Positions 54,635 through 62,485 of a stretch of 64,000 nucleotides of DNA are shown piece by piece; position 1 is the stretch's first letter; every line of letters starts with the position of its first letter. The DNA is from Candidatus Kaiserbacteria bacterium. GTDB lineage: Bacteria > Patescibacteriota > Minisyncoccia > Phycocordibacterales > Phycocordibacteraceae. The stretch covers positions 95,359-159,358 of the forward strand of contig DAIDIW010000001.1 of assembly GCA_027451665.1 (NCBI GenBank), in the 5' to 3' direction. The translations under genes were made by a program, and so were the position numbers. The notes beneath the pieces were generated by a model. The model did not search any database, was not told the DNA's origin, and worked only from the letters and a program-made list of their open reading frames with translations.

Positions 54635-54705
54635 AGCGGGGTAGAGGAGAGGTACCTCGGGAGGCTCATAACCTCCAGACGCGGGTTCGATTCCCGCCCC
54701 CGCAA
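54635..54705 (+). tRNA. tRNA-Met (anticodon CAT), possibly initiator-like
   Basis: Anticodon loop CTCATAA. T-arm GCGGG-TTCGATT-CCCGC. D-arm GAGG-AGAGGTA-CCTC with A11:U24. Acceptor AGCGGGG/CCCCGCA has an unpaired 1:72. The 4-nt variable loop and 5' end are uncertain by 1 nt. Confidence 0.7.
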
Positions 54706-54725
54706 CACGGTTGTGACGCCAGGAA
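54704..54725 (+). repeat. Left direct repeat (att-like) AACACGGTTGTGACGCCAGGAA
   Basis: 22-nt exact match to 58452-58473. Confidence 0.7.
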
Positions 54726-54775
54726 CTGCTTCCGGCCCCCATTAAGGCCAGTACAGTACCGCTCGGCATCACGTA

Positions 54776-54807
54776 CGCAAAAGCCGCCCGAAAGGGCGGC
54801 TTTTGCG
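54776..54807. terminator. Hairpin CGCAAAAGCCGCCC-GAAA-GGGCGGCTTTTGCG
   Basis: Perfect 14-bp stem with a GAAA tetraloop just inside the island left end. Confidence 0.5.
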
Positions 54808-54874
54808 TATTGGACAGATGTTGCGGGTAGTCGTATTCTGTGGTCATGCACGGGATACGCGCGTCTACAATTTT

Positions 54875-56059
54875 ATGCAGATCACGGTCAAACGAAAAAA
54901 TTCGGCCATCCTCGATGACACTGTCGTACGGGCGGTTCTCGGTATGTACCCCGAAGAGAAACTTGTCGAGCGACCCCTTTTTGAAGAAGGGCTAAGCGGT
55001 ACGCCCATTGATTTTCAGGATTTCCGCGATGAGTGCGATAAGATCCTCATCCCCTGGCAGATGTTCCTCCTAAGCAAGGTGAACCTTGCCACCGAACTCG
55101 GGCATATTGAATCACAGCGACAGAAGGTTTCCCAAAAGCTTTTTGCGAAGAGGCGAGGTAACGGTAACGTTACCTCGAAACGTATTATTGACCGTCTTAT
55201 TCGCTGTCAGAATTACGTAACTACGAATGGTACTTTCCCGAAGCATGCGTTCTCTGGCTCCTTGAATGGGATGCAGACCATAGATGCGGCTGCTCATATT
55301 GTCGCCTACTTCGGTATCGATATGAGAGTCTTTCGCAGCAAGAAAAAGGCAGAAGCTCTTTCATATCTCATCAAACGGCTAGAAGAGAACAACATCAATG
55401 TCTGCCAAGGAGTACTCACTAACAAGATTCTTCCACAGGTGGATGGAGTGCGAGAAGTATACAAAGGCACCAGCGGTTTTGCTATTAAGGACGAGAAGGT
55501 GCCGTTCGTCTTTATTCCCAGTGAAATTAATCCCAACGAGAAGGATGGGAGACAAATCTACACCTTGGTATATCTCATGACGGTAGTCGGTCTCGAACAG
55601 TACGAGTTCATCCTCAATAAGGATTTCAAGGTCAGTCTCCTTGCGTCTCGCGGTCTGCAAAAGCGGATTTACGATATTACTTCTGAATTCTTGCTCCCGA
55701 GAGCAAAGACGGAGCAGTATCGCGGAATAACGATTACGGAAACTATCCGTGACGACCTCTCGACTGCCTACAAGATAACTCCGTCGGCAGTAACGGTTAT
55801 TTTCAGAAAACGTGGCCACATCCCTGACCAGGCCGTATATGAGGCGCTCTTGCCGGATCCCCAGCCTGTTGTCTCTGATAATGGACCGCGCCGACAACCG
55901 GGCATTGAAGCGTCGGTAAGGAAGTTTAACGGCAAGCATGTCTGCGATCTTGCGAACCCAGCGATTAAGAGCCGTGCTCTATTTCCAGTCCAGGCGCAAT
56001 ATTTGCTCTTTGGTTCGGTGAACAAGAAGGGATTTAAGGACTACCAAAAAACGCTATGA
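54875..56059 (+). CDS. Hypothetical protein, island cargo gene 1 (~394 aa)
   Basis: GC is ~47%. No Walker, nuclease or other motif is recognisable by eye. A TACAAT -10-like hexamer sits at 54866 just upstream. The start is set at MQITVKR after the hairpin. Confidence 0.45.
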   Translation: MQITVKRKNSAILDDTVVRAVLGMYPEEKLVERPLFEEGLSGTPIDFQDFRDECDKILIPWQMFLLSKVNLATELGHIESQRQKVSQKLFAKRRGNGNVTSKRIIDRLIRCQNYVTTNGTFPKHAFSGSLNGMQTIDAAAHIVAYFGIDMRVFRSKKKAEALSYLIKRLEENNINVCQGVLTNKILPQVDGVREVYKGTSGFAIKDEKVPFVFIPSEINPNEKDGRQIYTLVYLMTVVGLEQYEFILNKDFKVSLLASRGLQKRIYDITSEFLLPRAKTEQYRGITITETIRDDLSTAYKITPSAVTVIFRKRGHIPDQAVYEALLPDPQPVVSDNGPRRQPGIEASVRKFNGKHVCDLANPAIKSRALFPVQAQYLLFGSVNKKGFKDYQKTL

Positions 56060-56493
56060 AAATCATCGACAATAATGGTCTTAATCACGTTCTTTCAAAT
56101 GGGATTCATCTTACGGAACCCTACTTCATCACGCCTGATGTCAAAGAAGAATATGAAGTAGAGCACGACAAGCTTCCGCATAACGTCAAACCTATTTTCG
56201 GAGAAGAATGGTTCGATAGTGCTGCGTATCTCCTGAATTACCAAACGGTGCTAAATCGGCGGGATGGTCGCTCTTTCTACAATATGACTGGATTTGGCGA
56301 TGTCTCCATCGTTGCGGCGCTAATGACCCTCAAGGCGTCGTGTGCAGGTATGCTTCCAGTCATGATTGAGGATCACGTTGTTATTACCGGGGATGTTGGT
56401 CTCACACGCCAGCTCATGGATGAGTTTAATGATACAGCCAATGAGTTCGACCAAAAGATGCAGGTTATTCGGCCTCAGGACTATGGTTGGTAA
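56056..56493 (+). CDS. Hypothetical protein, island cargo gene 2 (145 aa). Weak PIN-like features.
   Basis: The start overlaps the upstream stop (ATGA). The N-terminal MKIIDNNGL with Asp at position 5 and the later acidic residues (EDHVVITGD, DEFND) are reminiscent of PIN nucleases but not diagnostic. Confidence 0.45.
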   Translation: MKIIDNNGLNHVLSNGIHLTEPYFITPDVKEEYEVEHDKLPHNVKPIFGEEWFDSAAYLLNYQTVLNRRDGRSFYNMTGFGDVSIVAALMTLKASCAGMLPVMIEDHVVITGDVGLTRQLMDEFNDTANEFDQKMQVIRPQDYGW

Positions 56494-56707
56494 ACGTACG
56501 GGAGTATACTGATGACAGTTGTGACCTTCGACCTGAGGGGACAGACGGTTCGATTCCAGAAACCATGATGTATGTGCTCGTGATCTTGGCGAACGTAGTT
56601 CTGCTTATTAGTGCGTGCGTAACGCCTATTTCTGCTATGAAAAACGCCACAGTCGCTTGTAGCTATGTTCAAGGGAATGGCATGGACCCTCACGTCAAAG
56701 CTCGTAA

Positions 56708-57871
56708 CTAAAGACCAGTTGCTACTGTACCGGCGTCTTCGTTTTCACAATCGAGTGAAATTTTCCTATCTTTCAATACTAGTCTCCCGCGCAATTGCTC
56801 AAGTAGCTCGCGCTTCTCTTCGACTGTACCAGCTTCGAGTAAGTACTTCGCGTAGCGTTTGATGTCTATGTCTTTCGGCTTCTCCCATTCTTTCACTCCA
56901 AGCACCTGCGCCTGCATGTGGTTGAAGCGGGCAATTTCCTTATCGATAATCTGTCGCGCGCCGAGCCGGTCTATCTCGATCTCGTCGATAATATTACCGA
57001 GTTGTTCGATAAGCGCATCCTCGCGGATATAGGGATTCTTGCAGCGTCTGTCCCGTGTGCGGTTGCAGACGTAATAGCGGTAGAAGACGGATTTGCCGGT
57101 GGTTCGCAGGATTTTCTCCTTTTCAAGGCAGGTGATGCCCGATCCGCATTCTCCACACGTCATCATCTTTGTGAACGCGAATCCTTGGTATTTCTTTCGA
57201 GGACTCGTCTCCTCAGTGATTTTCTTTCGCACCGCCTCGAATAGCTCTCTCGTGATGAGCGCTTCGTGCTTACCGACGTACCAGTTGCCCGACCCACGTG
57301 GGTATTCGAAGACGCCGCAGTAGAAGGGATTCTTAAGAAGTTCATACAGCGTTCCTATACTCATATCCTTGCCACTCCGCGTCTTGAATTTCACTTCTTC
57401 CTTGAGCCAGTGATACACGCGCACGCCGCTCCACTTGTCTCGACCTACTTTCTCGAAGATCATCTTCACGATAGGGGAGCGGATTGGGTCGAGCAGGTAT
57501 TCGCATTTATGATCTGATCGATTGTCGTTCAGATACCCGACCGGCGCCCAGCCGGGAAGGGTAATTAGATCTTTTGCGGGTTCAGGAGACCATGGGCATA
57601 CAAACATAAGCTGAGGTTCCCGGATGGTTATTGCTTCATTGCCACGCTGGGTACACAAGATTGCCGTAGGACGATAGGCGCAAAACGCACATGAACGCGT
57701 GCATGCCGGGCACGAAAGGGATAGCGCGAGAACGAAAGATGTGGTACAGTGGGACAATGAGAGGGCCTGACTTAGACCGCGAGCGCAGCGAGCGGAAGCA
57801 TTCCCGTGGCGAGTTTCTCGCGCTCTATAACGAGGGCCTGCCGAGCGGATTCCCGCGCGCGACCGCCGCAC
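56708..57871 (-). CDS. Large serine recombinase remnant: recombinase domain, zinc ribbon and coiled-coil only. The N-terminal catalytic resolvase domain is absent.
   Basis: APVGYLNDNR...IVKMIFEKV...YHWLKEEVKFKTRSGKDMSIGTLYELLKNPFYCGVFEY is the recombinase domain. CGECGSGITC...YYVCN is the Zn ribbon. No S-x-x-Q/R catalytic motif appears in any frame upstream. GC rises at ~57650, suggesting truncation. Confidence 0.6.
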   Translation of the reverse strand: MRRSRAGIRSAGPRYRARETRHGNASARCARGLSQALSLSHCTTSFVLALSLSCPACTRSCAFCAYRPTAILCTQRGNEAITIREPQLMFVCPWSPEPAKDLITLPGWAPVGYLNDNRSDHKCEYLLDPIRSPIVKMIFEKVGRDKWSGVRVYHWLKEEVKFKTRSGKDMSIGTLYELLKNPFYCGVFEYPRGSGNWYVGKHEALITRELFEAVRKKITEETSPRKKYQGFAFTKMMTCGECGSGITCLEKEKILRTTGKSVFYRYYVCNRTRDRRCKNPYIREDALIEQLGNIIDEIEIDRLGARQIIDKEIARFNHMQAQVLGVKEWEKPKDIDIKRYAKYLLEAGTVEEKRELLEQLRGRLVLKDRKISLDCENEDAGTVATGL

Positions 57872-57996
57872 TCCTCGCCGAATATCGTCGTACGCACATC
57901 GACCAATTCAAGGGCGAGCACTGGTCGCTCGACCTGCATCGCAAGAAGGTGATGGACTGGCTCCCGGTCCGCCTGGACGCGCTCAAGAGCCGATAG
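57739..57996 (+). CDS. Possible small protein (~85 aa)
   Basis: ORF MWYSGTMRGPDLDRERSERKHSRGEFLALYNEGLPSGF... lies at the GC transition. Weak call. Confidence 0.2.
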   Translation: MWYSGTMRGPDLDRERSERKHSRGEFLALYNEGLPSGFPRATAALLAEYRRTHIDQFKGEHWSLDLHRKKVMDWLPVRLDALKSR

Positions 57997-58116: not shown

Positions 58117-58323
58117 ATGCAAGAAGGAACAATTACCCGTCTCGTTACTGAAAAAGGCTTCGGCTTTATCAAGGTGGAGGGACAGGAGAAGGACCTTTTC
58201 TTCCATTCCAATGAGCTCGTCGGCGTTTCATTCGACTCGCTCAAGGAGGGAGACAAGGTAAGCTTCGAGATCGCGGACAGCCCGAAGGGCCCGAACGCGG
58301 TCAAGGTCACGAAGGTGGCGTAA
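58117..58323 (+). CDS. cspA: Cold-shock protein (CspA family)
   Basis: GTITRLVTEKGFGFIKVEGQEKDLFFHSNEL carries the RNP1 (KGFGFI) and RNP2 (DLFFH) motifs. 68 aa. Confidence 0.9.
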   Translation: MQEGTITRLVTEKGFGFIKVEGQEKDLFFHSNELVGVSFDSLKEGDKVSFEIADSPKGPNAVKVTKVA

Positions 58324-58334
58324 ACAGTCACGAT

Positions 58335-58373
58335 GAAAACGACGCCCCCTTATGGGGGGTCGTTTTCATTTTA
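58335..58373 (+). terminator. Rho-independent terminator after cspA
   Basis: GAAAACGACGCCCCC-TTAT-GGGGGGTCGTTTTC followed by a T-rich tract. Confidence 0.65.
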
Positions 58374-58451: not shown

Positions 58452-58473
58452 AACACGGTTGTGACGCCAGGAA
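58452..58473 (+). repeat. Right direct repeat (att-like) AACACGGTTGTGACGCCAGGAA
   Basis: 22-nt exact match to 54704-54725. Confidence 0.7.
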
Positions 58474-62448: not shown

Positions 62449-62485
62449 CTCACAAAACGCCGCCCGAAGGGCGGCGTTTTGTGAG
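62449..62485. terminator. Bidirectional terminator CTCACAAAACGCCGCCC-GAA-GGGCGGCGTTTTGTGAG
   Basis: Perfect 17-bp stem between convergent genes. Confidence 0.65.

Follow-up and report, generated by a model that had tools for sequence, protein, structure and literature searches.

The locus described here raises the question of what is encoded by two overlapping genes placed directly after a tRNA gene in a member of the Patescibacteria. It lies in Candidatus Kaiserbacteria bacterium (GenBank assembly GCA_027451665.1, contig DAIDIW010000001.1, positions 95,359 to 159,358 of the forward strand), and this whole stretch of 64,000 nucleotides is referred to below as the window, to which all unprefixed coordinates belong. 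The two open reading frames (ORFs), named ORF1 (394 aa) and ORF2 (145 aa), are both intact, lie on the same strand and are situated just 3′ of a tRNA-Met gene. A first-pass annotation had regarded them as a cassette of unknown function resembling toxin–antitoxin (TA) or abortive-infection systems; on the grounds of homology, the PIN fold of ORF2 and the genomic contexts of relatives, this resemblance is the best reading of the locus. The cassette is probably a type II TA-type module with an abortive or anti-phage as well as a stabilising role; its non-catalytic ORF1, which resembles VapB52, would hold the PIN nuclease ORF2 inactive by direct binding.

54875–56059, plus strand: ORF1, VapB52-like three-domain protein of 394 aa, predicted antitoxin/sensor
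55571–55585, plus strand: ORF1 codons Y233-L234-M235-T236-V237, aligned with the HEXXH of canonical relatives (three independent alignments)
55892–56056, plus strand: C-terminal four-helix domain of ORF1 (residues ~340–394; helices 344–352, 354–365, 371–379 and 384–393)
56056–56493, plus strand: ORF2, predicted PIN-fold nuclease and toxin of 145 aa
56068–56070, 56149–56151, 56299–56301 and 56392–56394, plus strand: conserved ORF2 codons D5, E32, D82 and D113, respectively

Homology of ORF1 to VapB52 and loss of its zinc site

ORF1 is composed of an N-terminal domain, a middle domain with the ImmA/IrrE fold and a four-helix C-terminal domain. Its AlphaFold2 model has a predicted local distance difference test (pLDDT) score of 90.7, and IrrE-fold proteins fill the top eight places of the Foldseek comparison (probability 0.93–1.0). 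A single-sequence search returned 222 homologue clusters, and a profile search of 1.8 billion representatives gave 425 clusters at 50% identity, including relatives of ~400 aa that match over nearly the full length at ~20% identity. With a broad-family profile, which includes the distant relatives, the PDB entry 9vzy_A was matched (E 1.9e-5), belonging to the VapBC52 complex of Mycobacterium tuberculosis (PMC13273310). The profile of the close family alone had given BUD31 as its PDB match, which was discarded as spurious; the broader alignment was needed to reach 9vzy_A.

VapBC52 (Rv2515c/Rv2514c; PDB 9vzy and 9vzz) was characterised in 2026 as a complex in which VapB52 binds a VapC52 dimer at 1:2, with its N-terminal domain on the outer surface and its C-terminal domain occluding the active site (PMC13273310). 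Single-stranded DNA (ssDNA) activates the IrrE peptidase of VapB52, upon which the N-terminal domain is cut off, presumably freeing the toxin; the tRNase VapC52 confers phage resistance in M. smegmatis (PMC13273310).

The homology is further established through a bridging protein from a plasmid of Enterobacter mori, where it carries the annotation of an XRE-family regulator. It matches Peptidase_M78 with 57.9 bits, and the gene downstream of it overlaps by 4 nt and matches DUF4411 with 174 bits. This protein matches VapB52 (9vzy_A) with an E of 7.5e-26, and its partner matches VapC52 (9vzy_D) with 3e-9. The ORF1 family aligned with the bridging protein at an hhalign probability of 99.1% (E 8.8e-19) over 312 columns, covering ORF1 residues 44–383, and the close ORF1 family alone still gave an E of 1.1e-5. 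Part of the N-terminal domain is shared, where the motif IPWQMF aligns with IPFGYLF, and the C-terminal domain, in which K350, F351 and G353 are invariant, aligns with 9vzy_A to residue 373 and with the Enterobacter protein to residue 368. Because of the 9vzy_A match and the Enterobacter bridge, sequence comparison identifies ORF1 as a full-length homologue of VapB52-type XRE-ImmA/IrrE antitoxins, and its length fits the ~380–415 aa of the large partner in such modules. The match to the bridging plasmid was given by only one tblastn query, P0356. On this conjugative IncFII plasmid (NZ_CP091780.1; L037 964–1671), the XRE-M78 and DUF4411 pair adjoins the genes of a TIR-domain protein and a tyrosine recombinase.

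Standard family models recognise the ORF1 family poorly. ORF1 gave no match to Pfam Peptidase_M78 (PF06114) at E ≤ 1, the gathering threshold being 22 bits, and sub-threshold matches were obtained for 38 of 105 ORF1 relatives at residues ~205–313, the four inspected scoring 11.8–20.5 bits. Weak PADLOC matches were found to RmrA (22 of the 105 relatives, best 8e-5) and to capP (11 of 105), and no helix-turn-helix (HTH) Pfam model matched the N-terminal domain of ORF1. Three distant ORF1 relatives match the PADLOC candidate-system model PDC-M69B (E 1e-8), and an unnamed candidate system may thus already cover part of the ORF1 superfamily.

The zinc site of the IrrE fold has been lost. Residues Y233 to V237 of ORF1 are aligned to HEFVH in VapB52, to HELAH in an M78 protein of the distant-relative locus L032 and to HELSH in the Enterobacter XRE-M78 protein, showing that neither of the His ligands nor the catalytic Glu is retained. 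The position of the third Glu ligand is taken by Q262 or R264, and no Cys is present where VapB52 has its switch cysteine. The loss extends across the family: HEXXH was found at the zinc site in 0 of 105 close and 0 of 96 distant full-length relatives (201 in total), L234 is invariant in the close family, and the sole HE..H string among the relatives lies at residue 78 of one distant protein, outside the M78 domain. According to Matelska et al., PIN-associated DUF955 domains retain HEXXH (PMC5499597); judged from these alignments, the ORF1 family is an exception. Without the zinc ligands and the catalytic Glu, ORF1 is predicted to be incapable of self-cleavage. The linker between its N-terminal and middle domains (residues 81–100) is flexible and basic (pLDDT 53–74), with R82 and R93 invariant; two hhalign runs disagree on where the FR cleavage motif of VapB52 falls in ORF1, placing it at Q81-R82 or at Q87-K88.

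The PIN protein and the conservation of the pair

ORF2 has a PIN fold, which matches that of VapC52. Residues D5, E32, D82, S84 and D113 are invariant in the family alignment, and the conserved acidic residues are D5, D28/E32, D82 and D113. D5 follows strand 1, D28 and E32 lie within helix 27–36, D82 and S84 stand at the start of helix 80–95, and D113 comes after strand 107–110. The positions of the catalytic acids are well established for PIN domains, and the invariant residues of ORF2 occupy them. The small protein had initially been credited with weak PIN-like features; the fold and Asp5 were borne out, the latter being invariant, whereas the C-terminal acidic cluster (121–132) is not a conserved part of the catalytic site. 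Searches returned 65 homologue clusters from the single sequence and 223 with a profile. No Pfam match was obtained for ORF2 or 57 relatives, and the family is not DUF4411 (PF14367): against a verified DUF4411 protein, hhalign gave a probability of 0.2%, amounting to no detectable sequence relation, and the ORF2 profile retrieved only noise from PDB sequences. ORF2 is predicted to be a metal-dependent PIN endonuclease and, by analogy with other VapC-type toxins, would most likely act as an RNase on tRNA or rRNA.

The two genes travel together. In each of the 20 distinct close loci with enough sequence, the ORF1 homologue is directly followed by an ORF2 homologue, with a 4-nt overlap in 19; the two-gene unit proposed from the window alone is conserved and overlapping across loci. 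Outside this count stand two loci at contig ends (L013, L020) and one truncated copy (L023). Four distant ORF1 relatives (about 20–28% identity) are likewise followed, with a 4-nt overlap, by a PIN-motif gene of 139–193 aa; two of these four downstream genes match the ORF2 hidden Markov model (8e-17 and 3e-5), and none of them contains DUF4411. Two damaged copies were also observed, one in a Rhizomicrobium metagenome-assembled genome (MAG) with the ORF1 homologue truncated at about residue 273–309 and no ORF2 homologue after it (L023 5943–6872), and one in a Paceibacterota MAG with the ORF1 homologue frameshifted into two pieces (L027 10001–11198). These copies show that the antitoxin-like gene degenerates from time to time.

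Among GTDB species representatives, the pair is present in 18 species, most of them Patescibacteria (Paceibacterota, Saccharibacteria, Kaiserbacteria), and also in FCPU426, a Flavobacteriaceae MAG, Methylophilus, Rhizomicrobium and Bradyrhizobium elkanii. The distribution is sporadic and horizontally transferred.

In the window, the overlap of the two genes is an ATGA at 56056–56059, read directly from the sequence, and their GC contents are 48.4% (ORF1) and 45.4% (ORF2) against 59.5% upstream; the GC fraction drops from ~0.60 to 0.45–0.50 over 55000–57000. Both the overlap and a GC content of ~47% are as the first-pass annotation had described them. An upstream TTG at 54803 would give an ORF1 of 418 aa and the ATG one of 394 aa, and the ATG position is the start in all ORF1 homologues. 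The ratio of nonsynonymous to synonymous substitution rates (dN/dS) of ORF1 is 0.03–0.06 against relatives 77–80% identical, indicating strong purifying selection. The homologue clusters, the common start and the low dN/dS of ORF1 together establish that both are real genes.

Genomic contexts of relatives and the island in the window

The relatives of the pair are repeatedly found next to restriction–modification (R-M) systems and mobile elements. Six loci have the pair in a type I R-M operon, either between hsdS and hsdR, as in L004, L010, L024 and L025, or at its end. In Bradyrhizobium, it stands beside a BamHI/BglII-like type II R-M system, a SIR2-domain gene that adjoins a ParA-like ATPase gene, a serine recombinase and IS110, and elsewhere it follows a Schlafen-type helicase gene. 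One islet combines the pair with a BsaWI-like R-M system, an intact serine recombinase and an IS256 transposase in a slot between the PilM and NUDIX genes; in a sister genome, the same slot holds the pair alone, next to tRNA-Ser. The accessory or defence context first proposed for the cassette is thus supported by type I and type II R-M systems, SIR2, serine recombinases, insertion sequence (IS) elements and tRNA-adjacent hot spots. Housekeeping contexts, or a clear match to a characterised enzyme family, had been named as evidence that would speak against such a role; the contexts are not housekeeping ones, and the family matched is itself one of TA and defence proteins.

In related genomes, a variable insertion hot spot follows PilM and tRNA-Ser(GCT) and precedes the NUDIX gene (L007 7799–9619, L016 8219–11628, L036 2176–11581). 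It contains the pair alone, the pair with three small ORFs, or the pair with the BsaWI-like R-M system, the serine recombinase, the IS256 transposase and a small XRE gene. A different arrangement was seen in the distant-relative locus L032 (3157–4640 and 8901–11203), where an HTH-SocA/Panacea gene lies next to an NYN-domain gene, and a HigB toxin gene is followed by a canonical 402-aa Peptidase_M78 protein (HELAH) and then a Beta_protein gene. This locus is a dense TA and defence island in which HEXXH-containing and HEXXH-less ImmA-like proteins coexist.

The surroundings of the pair in the window comprise the following features.

54635–54706, plus strand: tRNA-Met (CAT), detected by ARAGORN (Rfam tRNA, 60 bits)
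54704–54725 (left) and 58452–58473 (right): perfect 22-nt direct repeat (AACACGGTTGTGACGCCAGGAA), 100% identity, from a repeat search
54774–54809, between tRNA-Met and ORF1: perfect GC-rich hairpin with a 16-bp stem and a GAAA loop, terminator-like, from an inverted-repeat search and the sequence
56708–57556, minus strand: remnant of a large serine recombinase, with Pfam Recombinase and Zn_ribbon_recom only

The hairpin, already noted upstream of the pair, was confirmed with its perfect stem and looks like a terminator after tRNA-Met. Two related GC-rich terminator-like hairpins of the AAAAGCCGCCCGAAAGGGCGGCTTTTG type occur at 54779–54805 and 62455–62481, being 78% identical. The TACAAT that had been taken as a −10-like box is present at 54866–54871, but only 3 nt separate its end from the ATG of ORF1, a spacing that rules it out as the ORF1 promoter. 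The sole alternative promoter found is a weak sigma-70-like match, TGGACA-17-TATTCT, at 54811–54839.

The 22-nt repeat brackets 3.75 kb, beginning at the last bases of tRNA-Met; its length greatly exceeds the 2 bp at which a serine recombinase crosses over. Both a recombinase and a tRNA had been claimed as neighbours of the cassette; tRNA-Met and recombinase sequence are indeed there, but the recombinase is a 5′-truncated remnant lacking the N-terminal catalytic Resolvase domain (~165 aa). In blastp and tblastn comparisons, it covers only residues ~161–445 of intact relatives of 427–450 aa (L011, L014), with homology ending at 57556, and no Resolvase domain was found in any frame at the remnant, which rules it out as an active integrase. 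Intact recombinase relatives flank the pair in L011 and L014, the latter having the same layout of the pair followed by a convergent recombinase. The element appears to be a small island of serine-recombinase cargo that can no longer move. Beyond the remnant, the segment 57557–58451 has near-host GC (0.55) and contains a 101-aa ORF with no family match (57691–57996) and a cold-shock CSD gene (58117–58323) with its own terminator hairpin (58333–58369); this segment may represent host DNA that was taken in or rearranged as the recombinase lost its 5′ end. Between ORF2 and the remnant, a tRNA T-arm-like fragment of 16–19 nt (CAGACGGTTCGATTCC) at 56541–56557 could be an attachment-site remnant or a chance occurrence, and its reading was dropped as it is too short to interpret.

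Proposed mechanism and relation to known systems

In the proposed module, ORF1 would be translated first, from the same overlapping message as ORF2. By homology with the VapBC52 structure, its N-terminal domain would grip the toxin and its C-terminal four-helix domain would cover the ORF2 active site. As the metal site is absent, self-cleavage could not trigger toxin release. The toxin might be released by turnover of ORF1 by cellular proteases or after host shut-off, by a ligand-induced conformational change (e.g., with ssDNA) of the retained IrrE-fold sensor, or by cleavage of ORF1 in trans. It is possible, though on balance doubtful, that the dead peptidase persists as a sensor that works without cleaving itself, either by releasing the PIN protein allosterically on binding ssDNA or another ligand, or by offering its conserved, flexible, Arg-bearing linker as bait to a protease of the phage or the host acting in trans. 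If true, ImmA-type antitoxins would have a second mode of activation, common among the little-studied Patescibacteria and in many cases built into type I R-M operons, where the nuclease would be a tRNase held in reserve.

Several observations weigh against a TA-type module with a defence role. Toxicity and neutralisation are deduced from a homologue whose toxin family (DUF4411) has no detectable similarity to ORF2, and ORF1 and ORF2 alone give no usable Pfam, NCBIfam or PADLOC match. No homologue was detected by tblastn of ORF1 and one distant relative against plasmid and phage collections, and ordinary genes are the neighbours in L007, L017 and L018. In the window itself, the island is decayed, as the truncated recombinase shows, and no defence gene neighbours the pair.

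The last two observations, together with the disrupted copies in L023 and L027, could also suggest that in this genome the cassette is carried along without function by a dead island and is heading to decay; this is quite improbable, however, since neither ORF is disrupted or shortened, every family-invariant residue is in place, and the dN/dS of ORF1 is low. Retention of peptidase activity through a non-canonical active site would be compatible with the IrrE fold and the scaffold residues S200, G201, P210, R226, E271 and P275, which are kept, but the His ligands, catalytic Glu, third Glu and switch Cys are replaced family-wide by the non-liganding Y233, L234, V237 and Q262/R264 and by the absence of any Cys, making such an activity extremely unlikely. 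Another IrrE-fold protein, PrpR, is among the top structural matches of ORF1 and is reportedly (Tang et al. 2019) a transcription factor acting without proteolysis. ORF1 might by this comparison be mainly a ligand-sensing transcription regulator, with the PIN protein as a regulated RNA-processing enzyme rather than a toxin. This reading seems improbable in view of the sporadic, horizontally transferred distribution, the variable contexts, the strict gene order with the 4-nt overlap, the conserved toxin-occluding C-terminal domain of VapB52 and the invariant PIN catalytic residues typical of toxins.

A pure addiction module, stabilising the island or the R-M operons through post-segregational killing with no role in phage defence, would explain the TA-like gene organisation as well as the location within R-M operons and on small mobile elements that have serine recombinases. 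It is nonetheless rather unlikely as the whole explanation, considering the frequent neighbourhoods with multiple defence systems and the phage resistance given by the closest characterised homologue (PMC13273310); moreover, addiction and defence are not mutually exclusive roles.

ImmA/IrrE-type antitoxins such as those of RosmerTA and VapBC52 are thought to act via a zinc peptidase. A family of 425 clusters that keeps the scaffold, the gene order and a competent-looking PIN protein without the metal ligands suggests that this scaffold can be used without proteolysis, providing a natural test case for how such modules could sense infection. It also adds a candidate TA or defence module to the genomes of Patescibacteria (candidate phyla radiation) and a PIN-like family that is missed by the current Pfam, PADLOC and NCBIfam models.

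Compared with known systems, the pair departs from canonical VapBC, in which the antitoxin is a small protein (70–100 aa) of the RHH, AbrB, PhD or MerR type, whereas ORF1 has 394 aa and the IrrE fold. PrrC is an ABC-ATPase-like anticodon nuclease encoded in the prr type I R-M locus and silenced by the R-M enzyme itself. The pair is alike in position only, as a latent RNase gene between hsdS and hsdR in the four loci named above, and shares no sequence or fold relationship with PrrC. CapP/CapH of the CBASS defence system and IrrE/PprI involve active zinc proteases that cut a separate repressor, in contrast to ORF1, for which no protease activity is predicted and whose gene is coupled to that of a nuclease. 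RosmerTA, formed by the Zn-peptidase antitoxin RmrA and the toxin RmrT, is closer, as an ImmA-type antitoxin is there associated with a variable toxin, pairing with PIN proteins has been described and the anti-phage function has been validated (Ernits 2023, PMC10440598; Millman 2022 preprint, 10.1101/2022.05.11.491447). However, ORF1 and ORF2 match no RmrA or RmrT model at E ≤ 1, and the RmrT toxins described do not belong to the PIN family of ORF2.

The arrangement of the pair was foreseen in predictions of three-component TA systems with XRE-COG2856 (Peptidase_M78/DUF955) and PIN-like proteins (Makarova 2009, PMC2701414; Matelska 2017, PMC5499597). Gene order and domain logic are the same, and the Enterobacter plasmid example likewise has a 4-nt overlap; those papers describe a retained HEXXH and propose proteolysis of an HTH repressor, whereas the ORF1 family has neither the motif nor an HTH Pfam match. 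The closest system is VapBC52, which shares a three-domain partner of ~400 aa encoded upstream of a PIN protein of ~150 aa, with both folds matching and the homology between ORF1 and VapB52 running from the N-terminal into the C-terminal domain. The two differ in that VapB52 relies for Zn binding on HEXXH, a Glu and a Cys switch, residues that ORF1 lacks, and self-cleaves with ssDNA, and in that VapC52 is a DUF4411 protein, to which ORF2 has no detectable relation. The initial description of the cassette as one of unknown function with no assignable motif therefore gives way to that of a pair whose large protein is homologous over its full length to the XRE-ImmA/IrrE antitoxins, VapB52 among them; this architecture had been predicted in 2009 and 2017, and its characterisation followed in 2026. 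The pair is a divergent relative of the VapBC52 module, combining a peptidase that is dead throughout the family with a PIN family outside current libraries.

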